Shown one piece after another: positions 14,442 through 55,794 of a stretch of 64,000 bases of DNA (positions within the stretch are counted from its first letter, which is position 1; every line of letters begins with the position of its first letter). Location of the stretch: NCBI GenBank assembly GCA_036499125.1, contig DASYEH010000014.1, positions 187,398-251,397 of the forward strand, in the 5' to 3' direction. Both the position numbers and the translations under genes were made by a program. The stretch is from Gemmatimonadales bacterium. Lineage in GTDB: Bacteria > Gemmatimonadota > Gemmatimonadetes > Gemmatimonadales > GWC2-71-9. The notes under the pieces were generated by a model that worked only from the letters and a program-made list of their open reading frames with translations, was not told the origin of the DNA and searched no databases.

Positions 14442-14457
14442 ATCGAAAGGATGTCGC

Positions 14458-22508: not shown

Positions 22509-23345
22509 ATGGGATCGATGGCTATCCCGAGACGGCAGTATCGTGGACCGATGCTTGCTGTGTACCGGGGTGTGAAGCCAACCAAACCGGCACCGACACA
22601 AACCACGACCGACGCGCTCTGGCGCAGTTGGCGCGATAAAGGCGATGCCGAAGCGCGTCGTGAGCTGCTGGGCCGCTACCTCGGTCTGGTGCATCACGCA
22701 GCGCGAGAAGTCGCCCCGCGGGTGCGGGATGCCGTGTCACTCGACGAACTGGTCTCGGCCGGTTCAGTCGGCCTGCTGCAGGCGATGGACGGCTTTGATA
22801 TCGATCGGGGCCTGGCATTCTCCACCTTTGCCATGCGCCGAATCCGGGGGGCGATCCTTGACGAACTTCGGGCCCGGGATCCGCTCTCGCGAGCTGATCG
22901 GGCCCATGTGCGGCAACTCGACTCCGCCACCGCCGAGCTGGAGCAGAAGGGCGGGCGCGCCCCGACCCCGACCGAAGTCGCCCAGCATCTCGGCGTCGAC
23001 GACGAAACGGTTCACCGCTGGCGCCGCCGCACGGCACACGCCGGGTACGTCTCACTCGAAACCGAAGCCAATGGGCGCAATCTCGCCGATCAGGTCGGCG
23101 ACGAAACAACGACGGCTGCAGACGGCAACCTGGAACTCGCTGAGCGAAGCGGGGCGATTCGGGCCGCGCTGCAAGACCTGCCGGTCCGCGAGCGGCTGGT
23201 GGTGTCCCGCTCATACTTTGAGGAGCGCCCGCTTCGCGAAATTGCCGAAGAGCTCGGCGTAACCGAATCACGCGTTTGCCAGCTCCGGGCTCAGGCGCTT
23301 GCCCGGCTGCGCCGCGCTCCCGCCATGATGTACGCCAACGAGTAG
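22509..23345 (+). CDS. fliA: Sigma-70 family RNA polymerase sigma factor, FliA/WhiG (group 3) type
   Basis: Region 2 (YLGLVHHAAREV, DELVSAGSVGLLQAMDGFD, FSTFAMRRIRGAILDELR), region 3, and region 4.2 HTH (REIAEELGVTESRVCQLRAQALARLR). The start could be 22509, 22518 or 22551. Confidence 0.75.
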   Translation: MGSMAIPRRQYRGPMLAVYRGVKPTKPAPTQTTTDALWRSWRDKGDAEARRELLGRYLGLVHHAAREVAPRVRDAVSLDELVSAGSVGLLQAMDGFDIDRGLAFSTFAMRRIRGAILDELRARDPLSRADRAHVRQLDSATAELEQKGGRAPTPTEVAQHLGVDDETVHRWRRRTAHAGYVSLETEANGRNLADQVGDETTTAADGNLELAERSGAIRAALQDLPVRERLVVSRSYFEERPLREIAEELGVTESRVCQLRAQALARLRRAPAMMYANE

Positions 23346-42284: not shown

Positions 42285-43283
42285 ATGATCTTCTCGGTCG
42301 CCGTCCCGGCTACCGAACGGCTCGACCGCTTCCTGGCCGACCAACTTGGCATGTCGCGGACTCAATCCGCGCGACTGGTCGCCGAAGGATGCGTTGCCGT
42401 GGCTGGTAAAGCCGCGCGGGCGTCGCGGACGATGGTGTATCAGGAAGTGGTCGACATCACTGAGCCGGATCGTCCGCCACCGCGTCAGTTCATGCCGCGG
42501 GAGCTGGACCTGTCGGTCGTGTATGAGGACGAACACCTGGCGGTGATCGACAAGCCCGCTGGACTCGTCGTTCATCCGGCGCCCGGTCATTGGGACGACA
42601 CCCTCGTCAACGCCCTGGTCGCCCGCGGCACGACGCTCGCTGGCGGCGCGGAAGGGCGGCCCGGCATTGTCCATCGGCTCGACCGCGACACGTCGGGACT
42701 GATCCTGGTGGCCAAGAGCGAAGTCGCGCATCGCAAGCTGAGCGCAATGATCGCGGCCCGCCGCGTCACCCGGGTCTATGCGGCGCTGATCTGGGGGCAC
42801 CTCGACGCCAGCCCGCTCGTCATTGATGCCCCGATCGCCCGCGACCTCCGGGACCGCAAGCGGATGGCGATACTAGCCGATGGCCGCCGGTCGCGGACCG
42901 ACGCCTTCGTGGCGGCCCGCCTGGGGTCGATGGATCTGGTTCGCCTCGAGCTGCACAGCGGCCGCACCCACCAGATCCGGGTCCACCTGGAGTCGGTTGG
43001 GCATCCGATTGTCGGCGACCCCGTCTACGCTGGCGGTGGGTCACGGCGGATTTCCGGACCGGAGCGGCTGGAAGCCCGGCGGTTGGAGGCGCTGGCGCCC
43101 CGGCAGGCGCTCCATGCGGCGCTTCTGGCGTTCCGCCACCCGATCACCGCCGAACCGCTTCGGGTAACCGCGCCGTGGCCGGCAGACCTCTGGCCGCTGC
43201 TGGAAGCCACCGTCGGGGCCGGGGTGGTTGCCGGCCGCGAGGTGGCGCTGCAGGCTCTGGGATTCTTCCCCGATGATGGCTGA
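42285..43283 (+). CDS. rluD: 23S rRNA pseudouridine synthase, RluD/RluA family
   Basis: Internal ATG 42285. S4 domain (RLDRFLADQLGMSRTQSARLV), catalytic HRLDRDTSGLILVAKS, and HQIRVH. Confidence 0.9.
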   Translation: MIFSVAVPATERLDRFLADQLGMSRTQSARLVAEGCVAVAGKAARASRTMVYQEVVDITEPDRPPPRQFMPRELDLSVVYEDEHLAVIDKPAGLVVHPAPGHWDDTLVNALVARGTTLAGGAEGRPGIVHRLDRDTSGLILVAKSEVAHRKLSAMIAARRVTRVYAALIWGHLDASPLVIDAPIARDLRDRKRMAILADGRRSRTDAFVAARLGSMDLVRLELHSGRTHQIRVHLESVGHPIVGDPVYAGGGSRRISGPERLEARRLEALAPRQALHAALLAFRHPITAEPLRVTAPWPADLWPLLEATVGAGVVAGREVALQALGFFPDDG

Positions 43284-43638
43284 GGCCGGTGCGGGGATCA
43301 GCGGTATCGTGGTCCAGTCCATGGGGTCGCGTTGGCTGGTGCCGGTTGCAAGCGTGATTGAGGTGCTCCGCGACGCCCGGCTGATCCGGGTTCCCGGCGG
43401 GGTGCCGGCCGTCCGGGGGCTGGCCAATCACCGGGGGCGGATCCTGACGGTCGCTGATCCGATCCGGGCGCTGGAGCTCCCTGGCGACAGCGGAGCGGCC
43501 CGGGAAGTGGTGGTAGTAGAGTGGGCCGGACGCCGGTTCGGGCTGGCGGTGGACGGCGTGGTGGAGCTGGGCCGCGAGGCGCGCACGGGCCTTGCAGAAA
43601 TCGACCTCGAACGGATCGCAGCGGCAATCTTTGCCTGA
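43273..43638 (+). CDS. cheW: Chemotaxis coupling protein CheW
   Basis: Internal ATG 43273, overlapping the rluD end by 11 nt. IRVPGGVPAVRGLANHRGRILTVADP and FGLAVDGVVEL match the CheW-like domain. Confidence 0.8.
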   Translation: MMAEAGAGISGIVVQSMGSRWLVPVASVIEVLRDARLIRVPGGVPAVRGLANHRGRILTVADPIRALELPGDSGAAREVVVVEWAGRRFGLAVDGVVELGREARTGLAEIDLERIAAAIFA

Positions 43639-43654
43639 CGACTCTGGGGGAACA

Positions 43655-44020
43655 ATGGGACAACGGATCCTGATCTGTGACGATGCGATCTTCATGCGGA
43701 CGATGATCGCGGACATTCTCACCGGCGCCGGTTACGAAGTGGCCGGCGAAGCGGAAAGCGGGCTGCAGGCGGTCGAGCGCTACAAGAGCGTGAAACCGGA
43801 CCTGGTCACGATGGATATCGTGATGCCCGACATGGGCGGCATCGATGCGGTCAAGGCGATCGTCGCCGCCGACCCGAACGCCCGGATCCTGATGTGCAGC
43901 GCCATGGGTCAGCAATCGCTGGTGGTCGAGGCGATCCAGGCCGGCGCCAAGGATTTTGTGGTCAAGCCGTTCCAGCCGGCCCGGGTCCTCGAGGCCGTTC
44001 AGCGCGTCCTGGCGGGATGA
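43655..44020 (+). CDS. cheY: Chemotaxis response regulator CheY (single receiver domain)
   Basis: GGGGG RBS before ATG 43655. ILICDDAIFMR, phospho-acceptor DLVTMDIVMPDMGG, SAMG, and FVVKPF. Confidence 0.9.
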   Translation: MGQRILICDDAIFMRTMIADILTGAGYEVAGEAESGLQAVERYKSVKPDLVTMDIVMPDMGGIDAVKAIVAADPNARILMCSAMGQQSLVVEAIQAGAKDFVVKPFQPARVLEAVQRVLAG

Positions 44021-45522
44021 CTGACGCGCGGCGCGCCCGGTACGTCGCGCTCTTCGCGACCGAAGCGCGCTCGCTGTTGAGCGGTGCGCGTCGTGCGCTC
44101 GATCGGTGGCACGACAACCCCGACGATGCCGATCCGGCTGAAGAAATTTTCCGGGCGCTGCATACCGTCAAGGGAATGGCCGCCTCGCTGGAGTTTGCTG
44201 AGGCCGCCGAACTGGTCCACGCCACTGAGTCCACCCTGAGCGACGTCCGGCGCGGCGACACCGCTGTCACTACCGCCTGGCTTCACGATTTCGCCATCGA
44301 GCTTGATGCGGTCACGGCCAGCTGCGAGCGGGCGGTGGACGACGCCGGTGGCACGCCGGTCGCGGCGAACTCGTCGGCCCCCCGAGGTCCGCGCATCGTC
44401 CGCGTCGACCTCGATCGCCTCGACGCACTGATGGCCGACCTCGGCGGGCTGGTCACTGCACGGCAGGAACTGGAGCGTCGTGCCGACGCCGACGCGCTGT
44501 CGCCCATCGCGCAGGCAGCAATGCAGATGGCGCGGCGGCTCGATACGCTGCAAGCGCGCATCCTGGATGTCCGCCTGGCGCCGCTCGCCGAGGTGCTTGA
44601 GCGGGCACCACCGCTGGTGCGTGACGTCGCGCGCCAGTTGGGGAAGGATGTGCAGGTCGACATCACGGGCGACACGCTCGAAGTCGACCGCGCCATCCTC
44701 GATCAGCTCGCCGAGCCGCTGCTGCACCTGCTGCGCAACGCCGTCGATCACGGCATCGAAACGCCCGAGGTGCGTCGGGCAGCCGGCAAGCGCCCGGTGG
44801 GACGCATCGCGGTCGCGGCACGCCAGGACGGCGACGCGGTTGTCCTGGAAATCACCGACGATGGCCGCGGCGTCGATCGCGAGGCCGTGGCTGCTCGCGC
44901 CCGCGCCCTGGGGATGCTTGATGCCGATGCCACGCTCACCGATGACGGTCTCCTCGGCCTGCTTGAGCGGCCGGGCTTCTCGACCGCGTCGAGAGTCACC
45001 GATATCTCCGGCCGCGGCGTCGGCCTCGATGTCGTGGTCGCGCGGATGCGCGACATCGGCGCGTCGCTGACGCTCACCACTGTGCTCGGGCACGGCACCG
45101 TCTTTTCCTTGCGACTGCCGACGCGGCTCGGGATCGTCCGTGCCCTGGTCACCCGCGTGGGTGACGAACGGTACGTCATGCCATTGATGCACGTGGTCGA
45201 ACTGGTGCCGTGGGCACGCGAGCTGGTGACTCAAGTGAACGGTCGCGCAACTCTGCGGGTGCACGATCAGGACCTGCCGATCGTGGACTTGCGGCGCCTG
45301 GTGCAGTTTCGCGGTGACGACGCGCCGGCGCACCGTCCGGCAATCGTGGTCGAGGCGAACGGTCAGCGAATGGCGTTGCTGACCGACGCGATCCTCGGCC
45401 AGGTGGACGCTGTGGTGCAGGCAATCGACCGACCGGCGGGGCTGGCGCGCTGGATTACCGGCGCAACGGTGCTGGATGACGGGCGGCCAGCGTTGTTGAT
45501 GGATCTGGCGAGTGTGGTGTGA
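44017..45522 (+). CDS. cheA: Chemotaxis histidine kinase CheA
   Basis: ATGA overlap with cheY. HPt HTVKGMAASL, N-box HLLRNAVDHGIE, G1 DDGRGVD, G2 GRGVGLDVV, and a C-terminal CheW-like domain. Confidence 0.9.
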   Translation: MTDARRARYVALFATEARSLLSGARRALDRWHDNPDDADPAEEIFRALHTVKGMAASLEFAEAAELVHATESTLSDVRRGDTAVTTAWLHDFAIELDAVTASCERAVDDAGGTPVAANSSAPRGPRIVRVDLDRLDALMADLGGLVTARQELERRADADALSPIAQAAMQMARRLDTLQARILDVRLAPLAEVLERAPPLVRDVARQLGKDVQVDITGDTLEVDRAILDQLAEPLLHLLRNAVDHGIETPEVRRAAGKRPVGRIAVAARQDGDAVVLEITDDGRGVDREAVAARARALGMLDADATLTDDGLLGLLERPGFSTASRVTDISGRGVGLDVVVARMRDIGASLTLTTVLGHGTVFSLRLPTRLGIVRALVTRVGDERYVMPLMHVVELVPWARELVTQVNGRATLRVHDQDLPIVDLRRLVQFRGDDAPAHRPAIVVEANGQRMALLTDAILGQVDAVVQAIDRPAGLARWITGATVLDDGRPALLMDLASVV

Positions 45523-45635: not shown

Positions 45636-46259
45636 ATGACCTCACAGACGAACGACCTCGACAGCCTCCGCCGCGACGCGCTCGGCGAAGTCGCCACCAT
45701 CGGTGCAGGACACGCCGCGACGGCGCTGTCGCAGCTCACCGATCGACGGATCATGATCTCGGTGCCGCACGTCCATCGGATGTCGTACGCCGAAGTGCCG
45801 TCGATGGCCGGTGTCTTCGGCGATCACATCGCCGTGGTCGCGATGCGGATGCTGGGCGACCTCACCGGCCGGGCGCTGCTGATCTTCGGTGAACGCGATG
45901 CCACCCGTCTCTGCGACCTGATCCTGCGCCGCCCGCCCGGCCCGCCGCGGGTGCTCGGTGAGCTGGAGCAGTCGGGACTCAAGGAGGTTGGCAACATCGT
46001 CTGCTCGGCGTACCTGACAGCGCTCAGCAACTTCATGGGGATGATGCTCCTGCCGTCGGTGCCTTCGTTGACAATCGGGCCGACTGATCACGCCGTGGCT
46101 GCGACAGTGGACGCGGCTGAGGCAAGCAGCGATCTGGTGTTCTGCGTCGACACGGCGTTTCGTGCCGAGGGCGCGGAGGACCCGCTGACTGGCGCGTTTC
46201 TGCTGATGCCCGATCAGGCATCAGTGCGCGCCATCCTCGAGGCGATCCGGCTCGACTGA
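45636..46259 (+). CDS. cheC: CheC-family CheY-P phosphatase
   Basis: GGAGA RBS. Two CheC repeats: DALGEVATIGAGHA...(22 aa)P and SGLKEVGNIVCSAY...(22 aa)P. Only the second keeps the E-x2-N consensus. Confidence 0.8.
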   Translation: MTSQTNDLDSLRRDALGEVATIGAGHAATALSQLTDRRIMISVPHVHRMSYAEVPSMAGVFGDHIAVVAMRMLGDLTGRALLIFGERDATRLCDLILRRPPGPPRVLGELEQSGLKEVGNIVCSAYLTALSNFMGMMLLPSVPSLTIGPTDHAVAATVDAAEASSDLVFCVDTAFRAEGAEDPLTGAFLLMPDQASVRAILEAIRLD

Positions 46260-46260
46260 G

Positions 46261-47394
46261 ATGCCGGCGGCACGCTCTCGCGACGCGCAGATCGTCGCTG
46301 CACTGGGGCGCCGTCTGGCTGCGGCCGACGCAACCACGCTCACCAACTTCGCGTGGTTCGCGGCGCGGCGTGGTGCCCATCCCGCTGCCCTCGAGGCGGC
46401 TCGACGAGCCGTCACGCACGGTGACGCACCCCGGGCCGCATGGCGCGCATTGGAGCGGCTGGCGGCCGGCCGCACGGATGGCATGCTGCTCACTGCCGAC
46501 GCCGCCGAGCCTGCGGCGCCTGAGCCACCCCGCAACCCGCTCGCAGCAGCCGTGTCAGCCCACGCCCAGGGCCAGCTCGCCGTGGCCGAGGCATGCTATC
46601 TCGCCGCGCTGCCGCAGGACGCGCTGGCCGCCGCTGCATCAAACGGGCTGGCTGTGTTGCACGAGCAGCGTCGTGAGCGCGCCGCCGCCGACGCCGCCTG
46701 GCAGCACTCCGTCGCCGAGGGCAACGTGGCCGGCCGGCATAACCAGGCGTTGGCAATGCTGCGGCGGGGATTGCCACATCGAGCTCGGGCCAACCTCGCA
46801 CCGCTGGTCGTCGGCGCTGGCGCGCCCGCCGTGCTGCGCTTCCTGGCGGGGTACGCCGCGCTCGCTGACCAGGATCCCCATGCGGCGATCGCCATCCTGA
46901 CGACCCCCGGGCTCGACGAATCGGCGCGGGCACAGTTCACGCTCGGACTCGCGTGTGAGCGACTGGGCCGGCATGACGAGGCGCTGGTCGCCATCCGCCG
47001 CGCACTGCTGATGTCGCCCTGGTACGCACCGCAAGTCTGGTTGCTGCAGGCGACCGCCGACGCAGCGCTGACGGAAATTCCGGCGGACCTGGGCGAGTCG
47101 GGCGCGCTGGCGCACACCGCCGATGTGCTGCTGTCACTGGGCCGGTCATTGCTGCAGACCGGACACCTGGGCGAAGCACTTGCCGTGTTCGATCAGGTCC
47201 TGACGCAGCAGCCGTCCGAGCCCGCAGCCCTCTTTCATCGCGGCGTCGTGCTGGCCAAGCTGCGGCGATACGGCGAAGCACTTGACGACTGGGAACGCGC
47301 CGGACAGGCTGATCCCGCCAGTGAACTTGGCGACGCGAGCCTGCGGCATGCGCGCTCGGCGCGGCAACTCGCCACGCTGTTCGCGAGTCGCTGA
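46261..47394 (+). CDS. TPR-repeat protein
   Basis: Starts 1 nt after the cheC stop. Ala/Leu-rich helical repeats, with recognisable TPR units near the C-terminus (LGRSLLQTGHLGEALAVFDQVLTQQPSEPAALFHRGVVLAKLRRYGEALDDWERA). Confidence 0.6.
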   Translation: MPAARSRDAQIVAALGRRLAAADATTLTNFAWFAARRGAHPAALEAARRAVTHGDAPRAAWRALERLAAGRTDGMLLTADAAEPAAPEPPRNPLAAAVSAHAQGQLAVAEACYLAALPQDALAAAASNGLAVLHEQRRERAAADAAWQHSVAEGNVAGRHNQALAMLRRGLPHRARANLAPLVVGAGAPAVLRFLAGYAALADQDPHAAIAILTTPGLDESARAQFTLGLACERLGRHDEALVAIRRALLMSPWYAPQVWLLQATADAALTEIPADLGESGALAHTADVLLSLGRSLLQTGHLGEALAVFDQVLTQQPSEPAALFHRGVVLAKLRRYGEALDDWERAGQADPASELGDASLRHARSARQLATLFASR

Positions 47395-47395
47395 G

Positions 47396-48322
47396 ATGCA
47401 CGGGCCGCTGGATGAAATCGGCTTGATCGAAGTGCTGCAGTTGCTGCAGCGGGGACGGCGCAGCGGCGTACTCCGCGTGAGCGGGGCCGACGTCGACTTG
47501 CCGCATGACATCGTCATTGCCGAAGGCCTGATCGTCGCGCTCCTCCCGGAAGCCGGTGACGCTGCCACTCTTGCCGCCCTCGCGGCGCGCCACCTGGTCA
47601 CCAGCAGCGAGACCGCCGATGATCCGCTCCTGCTGGCCCAGCCGGCGGCGGCCGACGCGCGGGGGCAACTCGCTCGGCACGCGCTCGCCACCATGATGCA
47701 CTGGCAACGTGGCCGGTTCGACTTTGCCGAAACACCGCCCGCCGCCGGTCCGCTGTCGCTTTCGCCGGAAGCGCTGGTGTTCGACCTGGTGAGTGCCGAG
47801 AGCCAACGTGTCGAACTCGCCGAGGCCCTCAACGATTTTCACGCGGTCCCTGACTTTGTCGCCGATGACCTGCTGGCCCAGGGGGCAATCCCGGAGCTGA
47901 CGCCGCGTGACTGGCGCATCCTCGACGCGATCGACGGTCGTCGCGACGTCGCAGCGGTCGCGGCTGCCGTCGCCGAGCCGATCGCGGAGGTAGCGGCCCA
48001 GATTCAGGCGCTGCAGGCTGCCGCTATACTTGAGCTCCGTCGGCCAGCCGCCGACGGCGGCGTGGCGGCCCGGGCGGCGATCGAAGCGGGACGGTACGAG
48101 GAGGCAGCCACCTTGCTGCGTGCCCGGCTCGCGGAACACGGTGGCGACGGTGAAATGTGGCGCGCACTCGGACTCGCCGAAGTGGGCGCAGGGCGATTCG
48201 AACACGCCATCGACGCGTGGCAGACCTGGCGCGATGCTGATCCCGGTCGTGCCGGGGACGCTGTTGCACTGATGCAGGCGGCCCGGACCATGGTGGAGGC
48301 ACTGCGCGACGCTCGTGAATGA
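47396..48322 (+). CDS. PATAN/DUF4388 domain protein with C-terminal TPR-like region
   Basis: ATG lies 1 nt after the upstream stop. The N-terminus GPLDEIGLIEVLQLLQRGRRSGVLRV fits the DUF4388 signature (G-L-x3-L-x-D/E-hLQ-x-h-x4-G-x-L). The C-terminus has RYEEAATLLRARL... helices. Confidence 0.65.
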   Translation: MHGPLDEIGLIEVLQLLQRGRRSGVLRVSGADVDLPHDIVIAEGLIVALLPEAGDAATLAALAARHLVTSSETADDPLLLAQPAAADARGQLARHALATMMHWQRGRFDFAETPPAAGPLSLSPEALVFDLVSAESQRVELAEALNDFHAVPDFVADDLLAQGAIPELTPRDWRILDAIDGRRDVAAVAAAVAEPIAEVAAQIQALQAAAILELRRPAADGGVAARAAIEAGRYEEAATLLRARLAEHGGDGEMWRALGLAEVGAGRFEHAIDAWQTWRDADPGRAGDAVALMQAARTMVEALRDARE

Positions 48323-49064
48323 CCTGCCCGCAACCCCCGGACGTCACGGCTTCGCCTTTCTTGAACTCGGCGAACGTCTGCGCCAGCGTGGCCAGTTCGC
48401 GGCGGCGGCGTCGGTCGCGTCGGCCGGACTGAGCCGATATCCCTCGGTGGCCGACGCCCACGATCTGCTGGCCCGGATTCGCGCCGACCAGGGCGACGAT
48501 GCCGGCGCCGTCGCCGCGTGGCATGCCGCGCTGGAATGCGATCCGGTGCACATCGGCGCGCGAAAGGGACTCGCCTTCGTCGCGTTCCGGGCTCACGACT
48601 TCGTCAATGCAGAGCGCCATCTCGACCTCGCCGCAACGCAGGCGCCCCACGACGCATCGGTCCTGGCGGCACTTGACCGGGTGCGCGCCGCAGCACGGCA
48701 GCGCCCCGGCGACGAATCGCCGGAGCCGGGCGATCCTGGCAGCGGGCTGATCCTCTACGACATGCAAGGGCTTCGGCTTGCCGGCAGCATTGACCAGGAC
48801 AGCGACGATGCGGACGCTGACGCGGCGGCCGCGACGGGCGCCGGACTCACCAGTGAATCGGTCCGGGTGGCCCGCCTGCTGCAGCTCGGCGCGGTCCGCC
48901 ATCTCATCATCGAGGCGGCCGACGCTCGCGTCATCATGATGCCACTCACCGCCGACGCCGCGTTGCTGCTCCATCGCGGGGCTACAACACCGCTGGGCCG
49001 TCTGCTGGCTCTTGGCTCGCGCGCAACGGTCGCTGCCCGGGCGTGGCTGGAGCGAATGGCATGA
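48315..49064 (+). CDS. TPR N-terminal half fused to a Roadblock/LC7 (MglB-like) C-terminal half
   Basis: 8-nt overlap. The N-terminal half has TPR-like helices. The C-terminal half (GLILYDMQGLRLAGS...VRHLIIEAADARVIMMPLTADAALLL) follows the Roadblock alpha-beta pattern. Domain call made by eye only. Confidence 0.55.
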   Translation: MNDLPATPGRHGFAFLELGERLRQRGQFAAAASVASAGLSRYPSVADAHDLLARIRADQGDDAGAVAAWHAALECDPVHIGARKGLAFVAFRAHDFVNAERHLDLAATQAPHDASVLAALDRVRAAARQRPGDESPEPGDPGSGLILYDMQGLRLAGSIDQDSDDADADAAAATGAGLTSESVRVARLLQLGAVRHLIIEAADARVIMMPLTADAALLLHRGATTPLGRLLALGSRATVAARAWLERMA

Positions 49065-49414
49065 GCATCGCTCGCTGGGAGAATGCCTTGCGTGAAGTGA
49101 CGCGCGTACCGGGTGTGCTGGGCGCGCTGATCATCTCTGCTGACGACGGTCTGGTGGTTGCTGAGTCGTCCATGGATGAACTTGCGACCGCCGACGTGGC
49201 AGCCTTGTCGGCAGCACTGATTCTTCGCGCGTCGCGCTGCATGAGCGCGATGGGGAAGGGCGCCCCCGGGAGCGTGCACCTGGTCGGCGACGCTGGCGCA
49301 CTCCTGGCCGTCGCTGGCCCGGCACCGCTCTGGCTGGTGGCCGTCGCGCATGGCGACGCCGAACTCGGCCGCGTGCGCTTGTTGTTGCGCGACTTTGCCG
49401 TGGTGCTCGCCTGA
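49061..49414 (+). CDS. Roadblock/LC7 domain protein (MglB-like)
   Basis: ATGA overlap. VPGVLGALIISADDGLVVAES...ADVAALSAAL...LVGDAGALLAV...LWLVAVAH, and the size (117 aa), fit Roadblock/LC7. Confidence 0.7.
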   Translation: MSIARWENALREVTRVPGVLGALIISADDGLVVAESSMDELATADVAALSAALILRASRCMSAMGKGAPGSVHLVGDAGALLAVAGPAPLWLVAVAHGDAELGRVRLLLRDFAVVLA

Positions 49415-49881
49415 TGCGCGTGCTGGAGCCATGGGTCACGGCACCGTTGACCGAGTTCCTGCGAGAATCGTCGGCCCGGCTCGCACTGGTGATGACCAGT
49501 TCGGGACAAGTCATCGCACAGCACGGGTTCACCCGGTCGGTTGATGTCATGTCGGCGGCCGCGCTGGGTGCCGGCATTCTCGCTACCACAACCGAGATCG
49601 CGACGATGGTCGACGCGCCCGCCGGATTCGGCGCGGTCGTGCACCAGGGTGCAGCGCAGGGGATCTGGCTCGCCGGATTCGACACCCCGCGCGGGCGGTG
49701 GATCGGACTGGTAGTCTTTGGCCCCGAGTCGACGGTCGGGTTGGTGCGAATGTTCTTCGCCCGGTTTGCCGAACAGGTGGCGGCGGCGACGCCCGCCGTG
49801 GTGCCGGTCCGCGATGTCCTCGCTGAGGGCTTCGAGCGCGAGCTCGACGACTCGCTGCGCGCCCTGTTCGGGAGCCGTTGA
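49414..49881 (+). CDS. Roadblock/LC7-like protein (divergent, third consecutive copy)
   Basis: TGATG overlap. ARLALVMTSSGQVIAQHG...DVMSAAALGAGILATT...GIWLAGFDT...IGLVVFG shows the same strand/helix periodicity as the preceding gene. Confidence 0.5.
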   Translation: MRVLEPWVTAPLTEFLRESSARLALVMTSSGQVIAQHGFTRSVDVMSAAALGAGILATTTEIATMVDAPAGFGAVVHQGAAQGIWLAGFDTPRGRWIGLVVFGPESTVGLVRMFFARFAEQVAAATPAVVPVRDVLAEGFERELDDSLRALFGSR

Positions 49882-49883
49882 CG

Positions 49884-50489
49884 ATGGCACGCATGGATGA
49901 AGCGCAACGTGACCTGACACTCACCGTGGTGGTGTACGGTGCGCCGCGGGTCGGCAAGACGTCCATCTTGCACTGCATTCAGGACCGGGTCGCGCCGGAG
50001 CGGCGCACCGGGCTGTCACCGCTCGGCACCGACTCCGGAGTGGCCACACTGCTCGACTGGCTGCCGCTGGAACTCGGTACGATCGGCGGCTGGAACGCGC
50101 GGGTCCACCTGTACGCCATTCCGGATCAGCGGCACGCGGATTCGACGCGACGGGTCATCCTGGGCGACGCGGATGGCGTGCTCTTCGCCGCCGACGCGCA
50201 GGCCAACCGCAGTGGGGATAACCTCGACGCGTTGCGCAGTCTGCAGAGCAATCTCGAGGATGCCGATGGCCTGCTGCGTCAGGTTCCGACCGTGTTCATG
50301 TACACCAAGCATGACTTGCCGGCCGAGCTGCTGCTGTCACGACCGGCGCTTGACCAGGAGCTGAACCCCGCCGACGCGCCGAGCTTTTCCGTCAGTGCGC
50401 TGCGCGGCGAGGGCGTGCTGGAAGCCTTGCACGCGACCATCAGCATGGTGATGCGGCGCCTGGTTGGCCCCGGAACGCGAGCCTCGTGA
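49884..50489 (+). CDS. MglA-like Ras-superfamily small GTPase
   Basis: G1 GAPRVGKTS, G3-equivalent LYAIPDQ (MglA has TVPGQ), G4 TKHD, G5 SALRGEG. ATG 49884 has a GGGAG-like RBS; TTG 49878 (TTGA overlap) is the alternative. Confidence 0.75.
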   Translation: MARMDEAQRDLTLTVVVYGAPRVGKTSILHCIQDRVAPERRTGLSPLGTDSGVATLLDWLPLELGTIGGWNARVHLYAIPDQRHADSTRRVILGDADGVLFAADAQANRSGDNLDALRSLQSNLEDADGLLRQVPTVFMYTKHDLPAELLLSRPALDQELNPADAPSFSVSALRGEGVLEALHATISMVMRRLVGPGTRAS

Positions 50490-50490
50490 C

Positions 50491-52452
50491 ATGGCGCTCC
50501 TGAATCCGCACGCGCGGTTCGCGTCGTTCGTCGTCGGCTCGTCCAATCGGCTGGCAGCCACGGCCGCCAAGACGGTGGCCGAGGCGCCCGGCGCCGCGTA
50601 CAACCCGCTCTTCTTCTATGCCCGGCCCGGCCTGGGCAAGACGCACCTGCTCAGCGCAATCGGGCACGAAGCGCAGACGATCGATCCGTCACGCGTGGTG
50701 GAATACGTCACGGTCGATGACTTCGTCGAGGCATACCACACTGCGCTCGCGGCGGGACAGGCTGAGGCGTATCGGCGTCGCTTCACCGACGCCCATCTCG
50801 TGCTCCTCGATGACGCTCAGCTGCTCAGCGATCAACGTGAGCTGCAATCCGAGTTGCTCCGGCTGATTGACCTGCTGATGGCAGCCGATCGCCAGATCGT
50901 CCTGGCGAGCGACCGTCCGCCGGAAGAGATCCAGTCGCTCGACGAGCGGCTGATCCGTCGCTTTGCCGGCGGACTGGTCATCGACATTGGCGCGCCGGAC
51001 TATGAAACGCGACTCGCAATCCTGGCCCGCCGGGCGACGGAACGACAGACGACCTTTGCGCCGGAGGTGCTGGCCACCGTCGCGGAACTGCCGATTACGA
51101 CCGTCCGGGAACTGCTCGGTGCGCTGAACCGCCTGATTGCCCAGCAGGCGGTCGCGGGTGCGCCGGTGGGTGTCGCCGAAGCGCGCCGAGTGCTGGCTGC
51201 ACTGGGCCATGGCAAGGCCTCACCAGCGCCGGTTCTGGCTGACCTCGATCTGCTCCCGCCACCCGCCGCACCGGGGATCCACGAAGAGTTCACGTCATTC
51301 CTGTCGGACGTGTCCACGGCCGTCTCGCAGCAGGTGGATCGTTGGCGGCAGCGGGTCACCGAAGCGGCGTTGCGTCTTGGGGGCGAAGGATTCCACACCG
51401 GCCGCCTTGATGCGCTCCTCGCCCGCGAGATTGCCGTCGATCCGGCCGCTGCGCTGGCCGCATTCGAGGCCGATGTCGATCTGCTTCGACAGTTGCAGGC
51501 AGAGATCGCGCTGCTGGCGCCGACGCTGCTGATGGAGGCGGCGCTGCATGATCCCGATCGGGTCGCGGAGGCCGAACTGCTGGTGGTCGAGGCGCGCGAA
51601 AGCGGCGAGCCGTTACCGGCGCCGCTGGCGCGGTACACCCTCGCACAGTTCGCCGAAGGAAGCGGCACGCGGCCCGTGGTTGAAGCGATCCGGACCGTCG
51701 CCGAAGGCCCGGGGCAGCGTTACAACCCGCTGGTGATCGTCGGCAAGTCGGGCGTGGGCAAGACGCACTTGCTCCATGCGTTGGGCCACGCGCTCAAGGC
51801 AACCGGGCTCAATCGGGTCGCCGTGTTTGACGGCAAGGATTTTGTCGACGGCCTGGTCACCGCACTGGGTGATGGCACGATTGCCCGGTGGCGGCAGCGG
51901 TTGCGGCGAGCTGATGCATTCCTGCTCGACGATGTCGGCGTGCTTGCCGGGAAGGAACGCAGTCAGGAAGAGTTGTACCTGCTGTACAACCTGATGCTCG
52001 AGTCCGGTCGGCAGATGGCATTCACCGCCAGCGTGACGCCGGCGCACCTCACTGGCTTCGAACCCCGACTGGCGACGCGCTTGGCCGGCGGGCTGGTGGT
52101 GGAACTCGGTCCGCCTGATCGCGACGCCCGCATTCATGAGGCCACGCGCCTGCTCGGCGTTGGTGTCGCTGATCCCGACCTGATCGAGTATCTCGCTGCG
52201 CGGCCGGCCGGCTCGCTGCGCGAACTGCAGCAGCTGATTCAGCGCCTGGTCGCTGCGGCGGAGCAGCGAGAAACGGCGCTGACGATGGACGTGGCACGCG
52301 CCATCCTCGAAGGCAATCGCGTCGCCATCGTCCGCCAGCCGCGGCGCAGCAGCGGATTGCTGGCGCCCGGCAGTGGTGCCATTCGTTCGCGCGAGAAGAT
52401 GATCGAGACGTGGCCGGACATCTCCGAACGCATGCTTGAGGAGTGGACCTGA
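50491..52452 (+). CDS. Protein with two tandem DnaA-type (domain III) AAA+ ATPase modules and no DnaA domain IV
   Basis: Module 1: NPLFFYARPGLGKTHLL, VLLDDAQLLSDQRELQ, IVLASDRPPEEI, RLIRRFAGGLV, TVRELLGAL. Module 2: NPLVIVGKSGVGKTHLL, FLLDDVGVLAGKERSQEEL, RLATRLAGGLV, SLRELQQL. Linker of about 170 aa. No DnaA-signature HTH at the C-terminus. Confidence 0.8.
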   Translation: MALLNPHARFASFVVGSSNRLAATAAKTVAEAPGAAYNPLFFYARPGLGKTHLLSAIGHEAQTIDPSRVVEYVTVDDFVEAYHTALAAGQAEAYRRRFTDAHLVLLDDAQLLSDQRELQSELLRLIDLLMAADRQIVLASDRPPEEIQSLDERLIRRFAGGLVIDIGAPDYETRLAILARRATERQTTFAPEVLATVAELPITTVRELLGALNRLIAQQAVAGAPVGVAEARRVLAALGHGKASPAPVLADLDLLPPPAAPGIHEEFTSFLSDVSTAVSQQVDRWRQRVTEAALRLGGEGFHTGRLDALLAREIAVDPAAALAAFEADVDLLRQLQAEIALLAPTLLMEAALHDPDRVAEAELLVVEARESGEPLPAPLARYTLAQFAEGSGTRPVVEAIRTVAEGPGQRYNPLVIVGKSGVGKTHLLHALGHALKATGLNRVAVFDGKDFVDGLVTALGDGTIARWRQRLRRADAFLLDDVGVLAGKERSQEELYLLYNLMLESGRQMAFTASVTPAHLTGFEPRLATRLAGGLVVELGPPDRDARIHEATRLLGVGVADPDLIEYLAARPAGSLRELQQLIQRLVAAAEQRETALTMDVARAILEGNRVAIVRQPRRSSGLLAPGSGAIRSREKMIETWPDISERMLEEWT

Positions 52453-54074
52453 TGGCCATCAAGGGTTCACTCAAGGAAGCGTCGCTCCCCGATGTCGTCC
52501 AGCTGCTTTTCCTGGGCCGGCGCACCGGCTGTCTTGCCGTCGCCAACGACCGGAACTTCGGCTCGATCTGGTTCGAGGAAGGATGGATCACCTTTGCCGG
52601 GATGGTCACGCGTCTCGACCGGATCGGCGAACGCCTGGTCGCGGCCGGCAAGTTGACGCCGGAACAACTCGACGCGGGCATGGCAGCGCACAGCGCCACC
52701 CCCGGCACGCGCCTCGGTGAGATGCTGGTGCATCTGGGTCATGTGACCGCCGGCGAGCTCGCTGCGGAACTCAAGCTGCAGGTCGAAGAGGCGGTGTACA
52801 CGCTCTTCAGCTGGACCAGCGGCACCTTCTCCTTTGAAGTGGGCGCGCGGCCTGATACACCGGATGTCGCGCTGCGACTCAATCCCGAAGGCCTGCTGCT
52901 CGAAGGCGCACGCCGCGTGGACGAGTGGAGCATCATCGCCAAGAAGATCACGACCGTCGAGGCCGTCTACGGGTTCGAGGGCGAGGCAATGACGCCGCCG
53001 GTTGGCGATGCACCGGTGATGGAGTCGGAGCGCCGCGTGATGCCGTTCATCAATGGCGTCAACACCGTGCGCGAGATCGTCGATCAGACCGGATTGAGCG
53101 AGTTCGAAGTGTGTCGGGTGCTCTTTGGCCTGCTGTCTGCGGGGCGGCTCCGGCGCCTGGCAACAGCGCCACCGCCGCCGCCGCGCGAAGATCTTTCCCG
53201 CGTCGACGAGCATCGCAATCTCGGCATCGCCTTCTATCGGACCGGGATGTACACCGAATCCGAGCGGGAGTTCCGCCGCGTCGCGGAACTGCGGCCTACC
53301 GATGCGATCGCGCCATTTCACCTCGGCGGCATCGCGCTGCGGCAGGCCCGCTGGCAGGACGCCGTCGACCAGCTCCATCGCGCGGCCGAGCGTGACGGCG
53401 GCCGCGTGGCCGTGGTACACAATCTGGCGTTGGCGCTCGAAGCCGCCGGGCGGCTGGACGAGGCCGACGCGGTGCTGGTCGCCACTGTGCAGCGTCATCA
53501 TCACGACGCACGCCTCTGGACCGCGTGGGGATTGCTTGCCTTGCGCCGCAACGAAGCACCGCAGGCGTTGGAACGTTTTGCGCGCGCTCGCGACCTGCTG
53601 GGTCAGGAGACGCCACCGGCGCGCTGGTTCTGGGGATGCGGCTGGGCACAGGCATTGTCCGAAGCGTGGCCCGATGCGATCGGTACGGTGCGGGAAGGGG
53701 TCAACGCGTATCCCGATCATCCGGTGCTTCGCACCACCCTTGCCGTGTTGCTCGAAGGATCTGGTGAAGTCGGAGAAGCCGAGGCGCACTTGCGTCATGC
53801 GCTCGGAGAAGAGCCGACCATTCCACAGATTTCCAAGAATCTCGGTGACTTGCTCTATCGCGCAGGACGTTGGGACGAAGCGGAAGAATCGTACGATCGC
53901 GCCACCCGGCTCGCGCCGACGCTCGGGGACGACATCTACTTCAAGCTGGGCAACCTGGCGTGTCGGCGCGGCGATCTGGTGACGGCTCGGCGGCACTGGG
54001 AGCAGGCGGTGACGCTGAATCCCGAGCACGCACTCGCGCGTGCGAACCTTGCCGGATCGGGCACCGCCGCATGA
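52452..54074 (+). CDS. PATAN/DUF4388 domain (with helical insertion) fused to a C-terminal TPR array
   Basis: TGATG overlap (alternative start 52443). MAIKGSLKEASLPDVVQLLFLGRRTGCLAV is the DUF4388 signature. A helical insert (RLGEMLVHLGHVTAGELAAELKLQ) is followed by at least 6 TPR-like units. Confidence 0.7.
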   Translation: MAIKGSLKEASLPDVVQLLFLGRRTGCLAVANDRNFGSIWFEEGWITFAGMVTRLDRIGERLVAAGKLTPEQLDAGMAAHSATPGTRLGEMLVHLGHVTAGELAAELKLQVEEAVYTLFSWTSGTFSFEVGARPDTPDVALRLNPEGLLLEGARRVDEWSIIAKKITTVEAVYGFEGEAMTPPVGDAPVMESERRVMPFINGVNTVREIVDQTGLSEFEVCRVLFGLLSAGRLRRLATAPPPPPREDLSRVDEHRNLGIAFYRTGMYTESEREFRRVAELRPTDAIAPFHLGGIALRQARWQDAVDQLHRAAERDGGRVAVVHNLALALEAAGRLDEADAVLVATVQRHHHDARLWTAWGLLALRRNEAPQALERFARARDLLGQETPPARWFWGCGWAQALSEAWPDAIGTVREGVNAYPDHPVLRTTLAVLLEGSGEVGEAEAHLRHALGEEPTIPQISKNLGDLLYRAGRWDEAEESYDRATRLAPTLGDDIYFKLGNLACRRGDLVTARRHWEQAVTLNPEHALARANLAGSGTAA

Positions 54075-54907
54075 GCGACGACCTGATGGAACCGTTGGAG
54101 CGCGAGTTCGCGCGGCTGAAGGAAGTGATTGCTGCCGGGCCGCCGCCAGCAGAACGAGGCGCCGTGCGCGCCGAGATCGTCGCTTTGTTCCGGCGGACTG
54201 AGGTGGCCGTCGCCGAGCTCACCGGATTCAAGGAGCGGATCCGCGAGCTGGTCGACGCCGTCAAGGCGCTTCCCGACGCGCCCGCTATATCGGTTCGCCA
54301 CGATCATATCGGCGCGTCCACTCATATCGAACGCGGCTGGAGCGCGATTGCCTCGGGCGACTGGGCGATGGCCCAGCGTGAGCTGCAAACGGCCGCGTCG
54401 CTCGATGGTACCAACGTGGTGGCGCCGGCGCTGCTCGGCTGGGCGCTCATGTACGAGAATCGTTATGACGAAGCGCTCCAGATCTGCCTGCAGGTGCTCC
54501 TCCGCGAGCCAGAACAGGGGCTCGCCCGTGTGGCGGTCGGGGCGATCTGCCTGCGCAAGGGGATCGTCGGCGAGGCGATCGAACACCTCTCTCGCGCACT
54601 GGCTCGGTCAACTGATGCCCGAGTCTCGTTGTACGCGAACTTCTGGCTCGGCGCGGCGTATCTCGAGCGGGAGATGCACAACGATGCCATCGAGTTCCTG
54701 CGTCGCGCCGTGTCGCTGGGGCCCAACCTCGCGGAAGGATGGACCGAGCTCGGCCGCGCGCTCTGGCTTCGCGGGCGGCACGCCGAGGCCAATGAAGCCT
54801 GGCAGGTCGGGGCCGGAATCCGCCATTCGCCGCATGCCCGCCGGTGCAGCGAGTTGATTGCGCTTGTTGCTGGGGGAGGGACGCCGCCACGTTCGCCCTT
54901 CGCCTGA
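54071..54907 (+). CDS. Coiled-coil plus TPR-repeat protein
   Basis: ATGA overlap. Internal ATG 54071 of ORF 53870..54907. TPR-like units (WAMAQRELQTAASLD, YDEALQICLQVLLREP, GEAIEHLSRAL, HNDAIEFLRRAVSLGP, HAEANEAWQ). Confidence 0.6.
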   Translation: MSDDLMEPLEREFARLKEVIAAGPPPAERGAVRAEIVALFRRTEVAVAELTGFKERIRELVDAVKALPDAPAISVRHDHIGASTHIERGWSAIASGDWAMAQRELQTAASLDGTNVVAPALLGWALMYENRYDEALQICLQVLLREPEQGLARVAVGAICLRKGIVGEAIEHLSRALARSTDARVSLYANFWLGAAYLEREMHNDAIEFLRRAVSLGPNLAEGWTELGRALWLRGRHAEANEAWQVGAGIRHSPHARRCSELIALVAGGGTPPRSPFA

Positions 54908-55794
54908 TCGTTGCGCTCGCCCAGCTCGCGGCTCCGCTTCCAGAGCGGCGCATCGAGGTGGGCGACGTGACAGTGATTGCCGACCAGGCTCATATCGGCT
55001 TGGCCACCTCGCTCGGCGAGGCCGCCGATGTACCGCATGACTGGATTGGCCTCGGGCGTCTCGATGCCGGGCGGCAGACCATCGTTCTGGTCACCGATCA
55101 ACGCGATTTCGCGCGGGTCTCGCATGGCAGGATTCCCAGCTGGGGCGCTGGTGCGACCTTTCCGGGGAGTCACCTGATCATCATCCGGCTCGACGGCGGC
55201 GACCCGTTCCAGACGCTGGCCCACGAGCTCGCGCACGTGGCGCTGCACCAATCGGTGCATCAGCGGGTGCCGCTCTGGTTTGACGAGGGGTACGCGGTGG
55301 TGGCAGCGCATGAGTATGGCCGTTTTGCCGCCTTGCGTCTCAACCTTGCCGTGGCGATGGGCCGGGTGCCGGAACTGCGGGCGCTCGATGCGGCGTTAAG
55401 GGGAACGGATACCGAGGCCGAGTCTGCCTACGCCCTGGCCGGGTCGGCGGTGGCCGAGTTGGGGCGCCGGAGCCGGAATGGCCAGTTGAGCGAGTTCATG
55501 GCGCTGCTGCGGGCCGGACTTCCCTTTGATGAGGCCGTCCGGCGTGGCACGGGCCTCACGGTCGATCAGTTTGAGGAGCGTTGGATCGCGTCGGTCCGAT
55601 CGCACTACAACTGGCTTGTCTGGCTGGCTACCGGGGGGATGTGGTTGATCGTGGCCTTGGGGCTCAGCGTTGCGGCGGCGTCGCGAAAGCGGCGAGAAGC
55701 CCCTCGGCGGGCGGCCCTGGACCAGGGGTGGCCGGAGCCGGTCGAAGATGACGAAACGATTACGATTGAAGCTGTTGGACCACCTTCAACTTGA
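54844..55794 (+). CDS. MA-clan zinc-metallopeptidase-like protein (HELAH-x16-E) with C-terminal TM anchor
   Basis: HELAHVALH at 55222-55236 and the Glu of WFDEGYA at 55285. C-terminal helix LVWLATGGMWLIVALGLSVAAA. Start uncertain (ORF start 54844 overlaps the upstream gene by 64 nt). Confidence 0.6.
   Translation: MQRVDCACCWGRDAATFALRLIVALAQLAAPLPERRIEVGDVTVIADQAHIGLATSLGEAADVPHDWIGLGRLDAGRQTIVLVTDQRDFARVSHGRIPSWGAGATFPGSHLIIIRLDGGDPFQTLAHELAHVALHQSVHQRVPLWFDEGYAVVAAHEYGRFAALRLNLAVAMGRVPELRALDAALRGTDTEAESAYALAGSAVAELGRRSRNGQLSEFMALLRAGLPFDEAVRRGTGLTVDQFEERWIASVRSHYNWLVWLATGGMWLIVALGLSVAAASRKRREAPRRAALDQGWPEPVEDDETITIEAVGPPST

Follow-up and report, generated by a model that had tools for sequence, protein, structure and literature searches.

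An MglA-derived GTPase with an apparently degenerate catalytic site, encoded beside three Roadblock genes in a conserved Gemmatimonadota signalling cluster

A contig of a Gemmatimonadales bacterium (DASYEH010000014.1, assembly GCA_036499125.1) contains, within the 64,000-nucleotide (nt) stretch that was analysed here and is called the window below, four packed and translationally coupled genes on the + strand (window positions 48315-50489). They encode a fusion of TPR and Roadblock domains, a minimal Roadblock protein, an orthologue of MglB and a homologue of the small GTPase MglA. We are highly confident that these genes, with the MglA/MglB pair at their centre, form the core of a signalling cluster that Gemmatimonadota inherit vertically, and not an island. 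Across the lineage of the window the GTPase has lost most of the residues with which MglA hydrolyses GTP, and the same genes accompany a fully canonical MglA in a sister lineage. We consider it probable, from sequence and by analogy with Myxococcus xanthus, that the cluster serves as a polarity module of the Frz/Mgl kind, with a GTPase that still binds nucleotide and no longer cycles by MglB-stimulated hydrolysis.

The GTPase gene (49884..50489) encodes a protein of 201 amino acids (aa) with the motifs GAPRVGKT, LYAIPDQ, TKHD and SAL, exactly as read in the original prediction made from the letters of the window. In phmmer searches of the PDB, the product matched M. xanthus MglA (5ymx; E=2e-30, 34% identity) and T. 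thermophilus MglA (6e-27); the next match after the MglAs was Rab27B, with E=0.11. An AlphaFold2 (AF2) model of the protein had a predicted local distance difference test (pLDDT) score of 86.5, and its top 14 Foldseek matches in the PDB were all MglA structures (template modelling (TM) scores 0.82/0.87), with Ras and Rab proteins appearing only afterwards. Judged by sequence and by the model, the protein is an MglA-family GTPase consisting of a single Ras-like G domain, which agrees with the family assignment proposed earlier. An Era/Obg-type or other translation-factor GTPase was rejected as a candidate, NCBIfam Obg models giving only noise (E 0.025-0.08) versus 2e-30 for MglA. A tblastn search found no second MglA in the 64-kb window. 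Homologues begin with MAR(L/M)D, which points to ATG 49884 as the start codon in place of TTG 49878, the earlier start of the open reading frame (ORF); counted from the ATG, residue numbers coincide with those of M. xanthus MglA.

In this numbering, the window GTPase has Pro in place of Gly at position 21, Val in place of Arg at 53, Ala in place of Thr at 54, Ala in place of Thr at 78 and Asp in place of Gly at 81; Gln82 is kept. Pro21 is part of the G1/P-loop GAPRVGKT (49938..49961), the Val53-Ala54 pair is encoded at 50040..50045, and Ala78, Asp81 (codon GAT) and Gln82 belong to the G3/switch II sequence AIPDQ (50115..50129), which replaces TVPGQ. Gly21 of MglA is the equivalent of Ras Gly12, Thr54 is the switch-I threonine that binds Mg and the γ-phosphate, and Thr78 lies in G3. 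In the M. xanthus protein, Arg53 is an intrinsic arginine finger and Gln82 is catalytic; the R53A substitution nearly abolishes and Q82A abolishes hydrolysis, both intrinsic and MglB-stimulated, and both mutants still bind MglB (PMC3199381). Thr54 and Gly81 bind the γ-phosphate, and Phe57 and Phe59 contact MglB (PMC3199381). As far as can be told from its sequence, the canonical mechanism of a GTPase-activating protein (GAP), in which Arg53 and Gln82 are positioned, cannot operate in the window GTPase. The original prediction had singled out the Gly-to-Asp change at the switch-II position: the change is real, but it is not the sole deviation, since no fewer than five catalytic positions are altered, and these changes extend through the lineage.

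The nucleotide-binding motifs G1 GxxxxGK[ST] and G4 [NT]KxD are both present in the GTPase, and almost every one of the 30 genomes compared retains them; G4 reads TKHD (50304..50315), determines guanine specificity and is retained across relatives as [TNSA]KxD. The protein scores below threshold with the Pfam Ras and Arf models, whereas canonical MglA domains pass. When the published criteria for MglA groups (PMC4316618) are applied, the group-1 signature Arg53-Thr54 is replaced by Val53-Ala54 and the group-1 G3 sequence TVPGQ by AIPDQ, and the signature of groups 2-5 is absent too, there being neither Thr for Arg in G2 nor GTPGQ. A further feature of group 1, a coupled mglB within four genes, is present, with mglB immediately upstream across a 2-nt gap. 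The GTPase is, by its sequence, MglA-derived, yet it should not be classed functionally as a group-1 MglA.

The database contained 111 relatives of the GTPase, every named one of them from Gemmatimonadota. Among the 30 genomes, position 21 is never Gly, and switch I has no conserved Arg or Thr anywhere. No other segment varies as much as switch I, where the mean entropy is 2.03 bits and the pLDDT of the AF2 model is below 50 (aa 51-56, counted from the TTG). The slot that corresponds to PGQ reads PDQ in 8 of the 30 genomes and in 51 of the 111 homologues; the other readings are PAE, PAQ, PGQ/AGQ, PGH/PGR, PLL/PLV, PPQ/PPE, SSR, SGR and PVG, each variant being fixed within its own sub-clade. 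Because Gly21, Arg53, Thr54 and Thr78 are lost lineage-wide and the PGQ slot varies, PDQ is best described, on these alignments, as a single sign that the catalytic signature has been lost throughout the lineage.

Other parts of the protein are held constant. The P-loop GxxxxGK[ST] and G4 are kept across the lineage, with some homologues that have GKQ or GKR and lack the P-loop Ser/Thr. Also kept are the β2-β3 hairpin LLDWLPLxLG, the sequence TRR after switch II and a near-invariant Met190-Arg191 in helix α5, where the window GTPase has Met-Arg-Arg; at the positions of MglA Phe57 and Phe59, the lineage has a nearly invariant Leu57 and an invariant Trp59. With a mean identity of 53% (26 genomes) and 12% invariant columns, the GTPase is the least conserved protein of the cluster. 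Its dN/dS (ratio of nonsynonymous to synonymous substitution rates) is ~0.22, versus 0.12 for MglB, both values being rough because dS is near saturation (~1.2). These sequence comparisons indicate that the gene is still under purifying selection.

The nearest canonical relatives were found by searching a library of 1.84 billion representative proteins with the clade profile. The first matches were about a dozen clade members, all with aberrant G3, and canonical group-1 MglA domains came next; among the next 134 non-clade representatives, TVPGQ is present in 129 and DRT in 124. Many of the nearest canonical-motif MglA-domain proteins (P0242-P0378) are 300-970 aa long and carry C-terminal extensions, apparently fusions or gene-calling merges: P0258 has a Ser/Thr kinase and TPR, P0262 has pentapeptide repeats and an ion-channel domain, and others have no recognisable domain. 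The closest canonical representative, P0238, has a DnaA-type AAA+ gene 3 nt downstream on its contig. A metagenome scan with P0238 retrieved 562 relatives and 80 loci, and the proteins of this sister lineage are named Gemmatimonadaceae or Gemmatimonadota by their sources.

The sister loci have the order CheY-CheA-CheC-TPR-PATAN-TPR/Robl-Robl2-MglB-MglA-tandem DnaA-PATAN/TPR...TPR3-peptidase and, as in the window, are flanked by rluD and rsmH-ftsI, from which shared flanks we conclude that the two clusters are positional orthologues. DRT and TVPGQ are both present in 80 of 80 sister loci, and all three Roadblock genes in 38 of the 39 that have enough upstream sequence. Since the same layout accompanies canonical MglA in the sister lineage, the three-Roadblock layout is, on the evidence of these loci, ancestral; it is not linked to the PDQ variant and so is no adaptation to it. 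By the same comparison of sequences, the loss of the catalytic residues arose secondarily in the lineage to which the window belongs.

The two lineages differ in how strongly individual proteins are conserved. Mean pairwise identity of MglA or its counterpart is 0.85 among sister loci but 0.53 among those of the window lineage, while MglB shows the reverse (0.60 and 0.76, the latter with 41% invariant columns), as does the tandem DnaA protein (0.60 and 0.72); because the loci of either lineage were collected through their similarity to that lineage's GTPase, these identities are not unbiased samples. The first PATAN protein (PATAN1; 0.57 and 0.56), the TPR-Roadblock fusion (0.57 and 0.58) and the minimal Roadblock protein (0.55 and 0.57) are about equally diverged in both sets and serve as an internal control for the rate shift. 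At the level of consensus, almost every position of sister MglA and few positions of the window-lineage GTPase are at least 90% conserved, and for MglB the picture is reversed. The direction of change is given by a three-way comparison: M. xanthus MglA is 58% identical to sister MglA and 34% identical to the window GTPase, and the latter two are 38% identical to each other, whereas the three-way identities of MglB (25, 23 and 47%) have no such asymmetry and follow the expected pattern.

The three Roadblock genes lie directly upstream of the GTPase gene, and the earlier description of them as overlapping genes of Roadblock type, the first fused to TPR, was borne out. Roadblock 1, the TPR+Roadblock fusion (48315..49064; 249 aa), matched Pfam TPR_2 with 30 bits and Robl_LC7 (PF03259) with 29.6 bits over aa 144-218; Roadblock 2, the minimal Roadblock/LC7 protein (Robl2, 49061..49414; 117 aa from the likely start ATG 49061, in an ORF that extends from 49043), matched Robl_LC7 with 29.8 bits. 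Both scores are above the gathering score of 23 bits. Roadblock 3 (49414..49881; 155 aa) reached only 18.6 bits, which is below it; this protein aligned over its full length with M. xanthus MglB (6izw_B, E=1.6e-7, aa 13-152), the acidic C-terminal helix included, and it is the MglB orthologue of the cluster. Its NCBIfam MglB match (9e-6) is below the cut-off of that model.

In Roadblock 1, TPR helices occupy aa 14-128, and the Roadblock domain (aa ~145-248) is without the N-terminal α1 helix. The AF2 model, made with 28 homologues (pLDDT 91), has seven TPR helices followed by β-β-α-β-β-β-α. When the halves were compared with the PDB by Foldseek, the N-terminal one matched TPR proteins and the C-terminal one matched Roadblock structures at a target TM of ~0.7: Asgard Roadblock3 9jue, M. 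xanthus MglB 6hjm, T. thermophilus MglB, 3kye, 1j3w and MP1-p14/LAMTOR 2zl1. The Roadblock fold expected for this half, and for the third protein, was thus recovered in both. There are 476 database relatives of Roadblock 1, and the named ones among the 120 listed are all from Gemmatimonadota.

The family profile of Roadblock 2 matched, in the PDB, the Thorarchaeota Roadblock 7f8m (6e-11), 9jue, CvnB5 3leq (2e-4) and dynein LC7 (~1e-2). An assignment as an MglC orthologue was rejected, there being no MglC or MglB chain among its PDB profile matches at E<=1. By these profile matches Roadblock 2 is LC7/CvnB/Asgard-like, and a comparison with MglC concerns role only. In MglB, the acidic C-terminal helix is LAEGFERELDDSLRALF, with the motif DDSLRALF versus DDDIDNLF in M. 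xanthus; this helix and the α2 helix, which forms the face that contacts MglA, are near-invariant among 27 genomes of the window lineage. Comparisons by hhalign revealed only weak similarity among the three Roadblock family profiles (P 0.002-0.17), from which we judge the proteins to be old paralogues of three types: TPR-fused, LC7/CvnB-like, and MglB with its C-terminal helix. Roadblock proteins are obligate dimers. The three genes are strictly co-conserved and translationally coupled in two lineages, a fact with which a multi-Roadblock assembly fits, and a hetero-oligomer of this kind is plausible from the sequences.

The whole cluster, ~12 kb long, has ileS and rluD upstream and the dcw cell-division cluster (rsmH, ftsI and murE) downstream. 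All its genes are on the + strand. The first is a CheW-like coupling protein (43273..43638; Pfam CheW, 51.5 bits), found at the same place in related loci, whose ORF opens at 43228 and whose likely start is ATG 43273. It is followed by a CheY-type single-domain response regulator (43655..44020; Pfam Response_reg, E=2e-29), with a mean identity of 89% in 24 genomes, and a CheA-type histidine kinase (44017..45522; Pfam Hpt, dimerisation, HATPase_c and CheW domains), which overlaps the cheY stop codon through ATGA. Next come a CheC-type phosphatase (45636..46259; Pfam CheC, E=1e-17, in two stretches), a TPR protein, TPR1 (46261..47394; Pfam TPR_1 and TPR_2, E ~1e-15), and PATAN1, a protein with PATAN (DUF4388/PatA_N) and TPR domains (47396..48322; Pfam DUF4388, E=4e-12, and TPR_16).

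The start codons of the CheA, PATAN1 and PATAN2 genes were checked. From PATAN1 to the TPR protein TPR3, genes overlap or are at most 2 nt apart. PATAN1 and the TPR-Roadblock gene overlap by 8 nt, the latter is joined to the Roadblock 2 gene by ATGA and this one to mglB by TGATG, and the gaps after mglB and after the GTPase gene are 2 nt and 1 nt, respectively. Downstream of the GTPase gene lie a tandem DnaA/Hda-type AAA+ protein (50491..52452; 653 aa; Pfam Bac_DnaA 8e-86, in two stretches), a second PATAN (DUF4388)+TPR protein, PATAN2 (52452..54074; 540 aa; Pfam DUF4388 7e-33 and many TPR models), and TPR3 (54071..54907; 278 aa; Pfam TPR). A Peptidase_MA_2 protein (54844..55794; Pfam, 39.3 bits) is syntenic in all loci, its membership of the module being uncertain, and a large TPR protein (56153..57943) occupies the position after the peptidase.

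According to tblastn, the gene order from CheY to the TPR protein after the peptidase is identical in 29 species-level Gemmatimonadales genomes wherever the contig reaches; rsmH-ftsI were found downstream on the same terms, and rluD, ileS and cheW were checked upstream in the window and in two further loci (L002/L003). With the same order in 29 of 29 Gemmatimonadales genomes and in 38 of 39 sister-lineage loci, the four-gene arrangement is not due to chance. Contigs of long-read metagenome-assembled genomes (L001/L014, L025 and L033) were left out of the conservation statistics. They contain broken gene calls, such as a GTPase G4 reading 'PSAT' and a split CheA, and these fragmented calls are most likely assembly frameshifts and not biology.

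The lineages also differ in the chemosensory part of the cluster. In the sister lineage, cheR, cheD, cheB and two cheW genes stand between the PATAN2 gene and TPR3 (L074 14086-17445), and the first TPR protein is much longer, at 852 aa. The window lineage is without the cheR-cheD-cheB-cheW-cheW set at that position, TPR3 following PATAN2 directly via an ATGA overlap (54071-54074). No methyl-accepting chemotaxis protein (MCP) was seen in the cluster of either lineage, and no MCP, CheR or CheB in the cluster or among the scanned long ORFs of the window.

The gene that follows mglA directly in both lineages encodes two DnaA domain-III modules in tandem, which are 36% identical to one another. Domains I, II and IV of DnaA are missing from the protein, the DNA-binding domain included, and TIGR00362 covers it at model positions 102-339 only. 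Walker A/B-like motifs are found in both modules (GLGKTHLL...LLDD and GVGKTHLL...LLDD), and there is hardly any variation between genomes in the first one. The top 120 database matches form one family (62-100% identity) in which every named member is from Gemmatimonadota, and no relative from outside this phylum was among them. TPR3 is distinguished by a conservation that parallels that of the GTPase: 0.69 with MglA at 0.85 in the sister lineage, and 0.56 with the GTPase at 0.53 in the window lineage. A mirror-tree analysis of 15 genomes, with background distances removed, gave partial correlations of 0.26-0.73, a spread that singled out none of the Roadblock proteins as co-evolving with the GTPase; the highest value for the GTPase was that with TPR3 (0.73). 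TPR3 may, on this weak evidence from sequence covariation, be an effector of the GTPase.

If the cluster is indeed a polarity module of the Frz/Mgl type, its Che relay would feed a GTPase-based spatial or polarity switch, as homology to M. xanthus Frz-MglA/MglB suggests. MglB would act on the GTPase as a homodimer, the TPR-Roadblock protein and Roadblock 2 would be accessory or adaptor subunits, probably a heterodimer, in the way that MglC serves MglB, and the TPR and PATAN proteins would be scaffolds or effectors. In the window lineage the GTPase has most likely kept its ability to bind guanine nucleotide and MglB, and it is probably GTP-locked or pseudo-GTPase-like. The M. xanthus MglB C-terminal helix binds basic residues of MglA helix α5 and drives nucleotide exchange (PMC6785124), and MglB has both GAP and guanine nucleotide exchange factor (GEF) behaviour (PMC13408092). 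The elements that bind MglB in M. xanthus, a hydrophobic β2 face and a basic α5 helix, are kept in the window-lineage GTPase. Since the α2 and C-terminal helices of MglB are near-invariant and the GTPase retains Met-Arg-Arg in α5, MglB probably still binds the GTPase, and it may be retained for a role other than that of a GAP, namely binding, exchange or sequestration.

The M. xanthus MglA/MglB-Frz system (PMC3199381, PMC6785124, PMC4719450, PMC10329633, PMC7519303) resembles the cluster in several respects. The best sequence and structure matches of the GTPase are MglA; an mglB with the C-terminal helix lies directly upstream, and an additional Roadblock paralogue is present, the paralogue of M. 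xanthus MglB being MglC (PMC4719450, PMC10329633). Genes for a Che-type kinase, CheY and CheW are linked to mglBA and present in all loci, and the TPR candidate effectors have a counterpart in SgmX, a TPR effector of M. xanthus (PMC7519303). In contrast to M. xanthus, a single operon of the window cluster holds three Roadblock genes, including the TPR-fused one; PATAN/TPR proteins and the tandem DnaA-like AAA+ protein are integral conserved neighbours; neither RomR/RomX nor the Frz receptor (a FrzCD-type MCP) with the CheR/CheB adaptation enzymes was found in it; and its GTPase is without Gly21, Arg53, Thr54, Thr78 and Gly81.

Among MglA systems more broadly, the nearest relatives of the window GTPase belong to group 1 of Wuichet and Sogaard-Andersen (2014; PMC4316618), with which it shares the coupling to MglB and the PATAN neighbours. 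One MglA coupled to two MglB genes (1:2), PATAN association and group-1 MglA in Gemmatimonadetes are all documented (PMC4316618); the MglA:Roadblock ratio of the window system is 1:3 in place of 1:1 or 1:2. Bdellovibrio bacteriovorus MglA, which has Ser21 and is predicted to be GTP-locked, in an organism from which MglB and Frz are absent, shares with the window GTPase a non-Gly residue at position 21 and the loss of chemosensory reversal or adaptation genes (PMC3983030). The two cases diverge otherwise, Bdellovibrio having kept Arg53, Thr54 and TVPGQ and lost mglB; the window lineage did the opposite, its mglB being more conserved than that of the sister lineage. The actinobacterial conservons CvnA-D (PMC13343842) are likewise operons of Roadblock, MglA-family GTPase and histidine-kinase-type input, and Roadblock 2 resembles CvnB5 (3leq, 2e-4). 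Unlike in conservons, no DUF742/CvnC was found in Pfam scans of all cluster genes, the kinase is CheA-type and not CvnA-type, and the GTPase derives from group 1 and not group 2.

Several points weigh against a polarity module with a GTPase that no longer cycles. Losing catalytic residues in cis does not prove losing hydrolysis, and Rap/RapGAP and group-1 Rup show that such residues can come in trans. The source genome, like roughly half of the lineage, retains Gln82, and the conservation of the G3 slot within sub-clades looks more like functional divergence than simple decay. The near-saturated dS and the way in which the two sets of loci were assembled, both mentioned above, reduce the force of the rate comparisons. 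The role in polarity or motility is transferred from Myxococcus by homology only, and the adjacency of dcw and the DnaA-like partner could indicate a role in the cell cycle or division instead. Genes for CheR, CheB and CheD could lie in other parts of the genome. These genomes may likewise hold a second, canonical MglA outside the cluster: Gemmatimonas aurantiaca is listed with two group-1 MglA loci, GAU_1115 'MglB>MglA>' and GAU_1409 'PATAN>MglA>-PATAN>' (PMC4316618).

An unlikely, though credible, alternative is close to what the original prediction proposed: the three Roadblock proteins would form a hetero-oligomeric, Ragulator-like GAP/GEF, the missing residues (e.g., the arginine) being supplied in trans by the accessory subunits, and the GTPase would still cycle. 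The ancient divergence of the three Roadblock types, together with their strict co-conservation and translational coupling, suits a hetero-oligomer, as do the obligate dimerisation of Roadblock proteins and the presence of LAMTOR and MP1-p14 among the structural matches; M. xanthus, too, uses MglC and the co-GAP RomY alongside MglB (PMC4719450, PMC9481161). Candidate arginines exist: Arg56 of Roadblock 2 and Arg184 of the TPR-Roadblock protein are invariant on helix α2, the face that MglB turns toward MglA, and Arg180 and Arg187 of the latter are near-invariant. However, in the sister lineage the same three Roadblock proteins occur with an MglA that is canonical throughout. The α2 arginine of Roadblock 2, the one compared between the lineages, is found there too; it is thus no lineage-specific gain and does not compensate for the residues lost in cis. 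An arginine in trans would, moreover, not replace the catalytic Gln and the γ-phosphate Gly, both of which are also variable.

As to the likeness itself, Ragulator/LAMTOR-Rag and the Asgard Roadblock-GTPase sets (PMC10933270) do combine several distinct Roadblock-fold proteins with a small GTPase, and Roadblock 2 is closest in sequence to the Asgard Roadblocks 7f8m and 9jue. The window GTPase, however, is a 201-aa single G domain of MglA type with no Gtr1_RagA match, whereas a Rag GTPase works in a heterodimer and has a Roadblock domain of its own at the C-terminus; the window protein has neither such a domain nor a heterodimer partner. No LAMTOR1-like anchor was found in the window cluster. 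The observation of three non-identical Roadblocks beside an MglA-family GTPase stands, but Ragulator is a loose analogy for a GTPase that is not Rag-like, and M. xanthus MglB/MglC is the closer precedent.

We are more doubtful about a version in which the protein is a true bacterial pseudo-GTPase that has nucleotide bound without switching and acts as a fixed adaptor. The MglB homodimer, a heterodimer of the TPR-Roadblock protein and Roadblock 2, and the PATAN/TPR proteins would link the Che phosphorelay to the tandem DnaA/Hda protein, making the cluster a device that couples polarity to the cell cycle or division, and the sister lineage would represent the ancestral, switching version. Eukaryotic pseudoGTPases of the Rnd and RhoH type keep the Ras-like fold and the nucleotide-binding motifs and have lost catalytic residues. 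The window GTPase differs from them in being prokaryotic and MglA-derived.

It is improbable, in our view, that the cluster is an ordinary MglA/MglB switch in which the substitutions are tolerated and MglB acts as a GAP. The fold, G1, G4, Gln82 and an adjacent MglB with intact α2 and C-terminal helices would all be expected of such a switch, and so would purifying selection on the GTPase gene. Against this, the residues experimentally needed for MglB-stimulated hydrolysis are all changed except Gln82, TVPGQ and DRT are almost without exception in the canonical MglAs described above, and the window clade evolves far faster than its positional orthologue. Very improbable is the idea of a decaying, functionless mglA remnant kept through operon position only, which could call on the lowest conservation and smallest share of invariant columns in the cluster and on the GKQ and GKR homologues: the ORF is intact at ~200 aa in all short-read genomes, dN/dS is ~0.22, G1, G4, the β2-β3 hairpin and TRR are conserved, the G3 motifs are fixed in sub-clades, and the AF2 model is confident. 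That the small GTPase, AAA+ and TPR genes form an anti-phage defence or mobile island, as the AAA+ and TPR components and one weak PADLOC P-loop match to mad8 might suggest, has a negligible chance of being true, given that the Roadblock, GTPase and PATAN proteins are all without a match to a PADLOC family, that the chromosomal place between rluD and dcw is fixed in >60 loci of two lineages, and that GC (0.67-0.70 in the cluster part of the window) shows no sharp break from the flanks.

Elsewhere in the window, a sigma-70-family factor of 278 aa with regions 2, 3 and 4 is encoded ~20 kb upstream (22509-23345) and has the size and domain layout expected of an alternative sigma factor like FliA/WhiG. 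A 1286-aa DUF4175 ORF (18460-22320) has poly-Gly runs and long (Gly-Gln)n low-complexity tracts, and these tracts explain the AT-skew (0.28) and the GC-skew spike at 20001-22000. It is preceded by an aerotolerance-like set consisting of MoxR (14341-15489), DUF58/VWA (15495-16397) and BatA/VWA (16397-18463).

Apart from PMC4316618, our literature searches found nothing on MglA with Gemmatimonadetes, nor anything that links PATAN, Roadblock and MglA with DnaA. They returned no description of a 1:3 layout with a TPR-fused Roadblock, of a conserved Che/PATAN/TPR/tandem-DnaA cluster beside dcw, or of an MglA clade that lacks both the group-1 and the group 2-5 signatures yet keeps a highly conserved MglB.

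MglA/MglB is the reference for Ras-like control of polarity in bacteria, and its mechanism rests on the positioning of Arg53 and Gln82 by MglB. A canonical and a degenerate version of the GTPase within one and the same cluster provide a comparative handle on the non-GAP roles of MglB, which are debated (PMC6785124, PMC13408092), and the same pair of lineages is a handle on the purpose of the extra Roadblock subunits. Should the GTPase prove to be a pseudo-GTPase adaptor, the two lineages would be a before-and-after pair for a small-GTPase switch turned scaffold; should the biochemical inference be wrong, neither the arginine finger nor Thr54 and Gly81 would be indispensable for hydrolysis of the MglA type. 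The cluster also reveals, in a phylum whose cell biology is almost unstudied, that MglA has conserved and so far uncharacterised partners in PATAN/TPR proteins and in a tandem DnaA/Hda protein devoid of a DNA-binding domain, encoded beside the division cluster.

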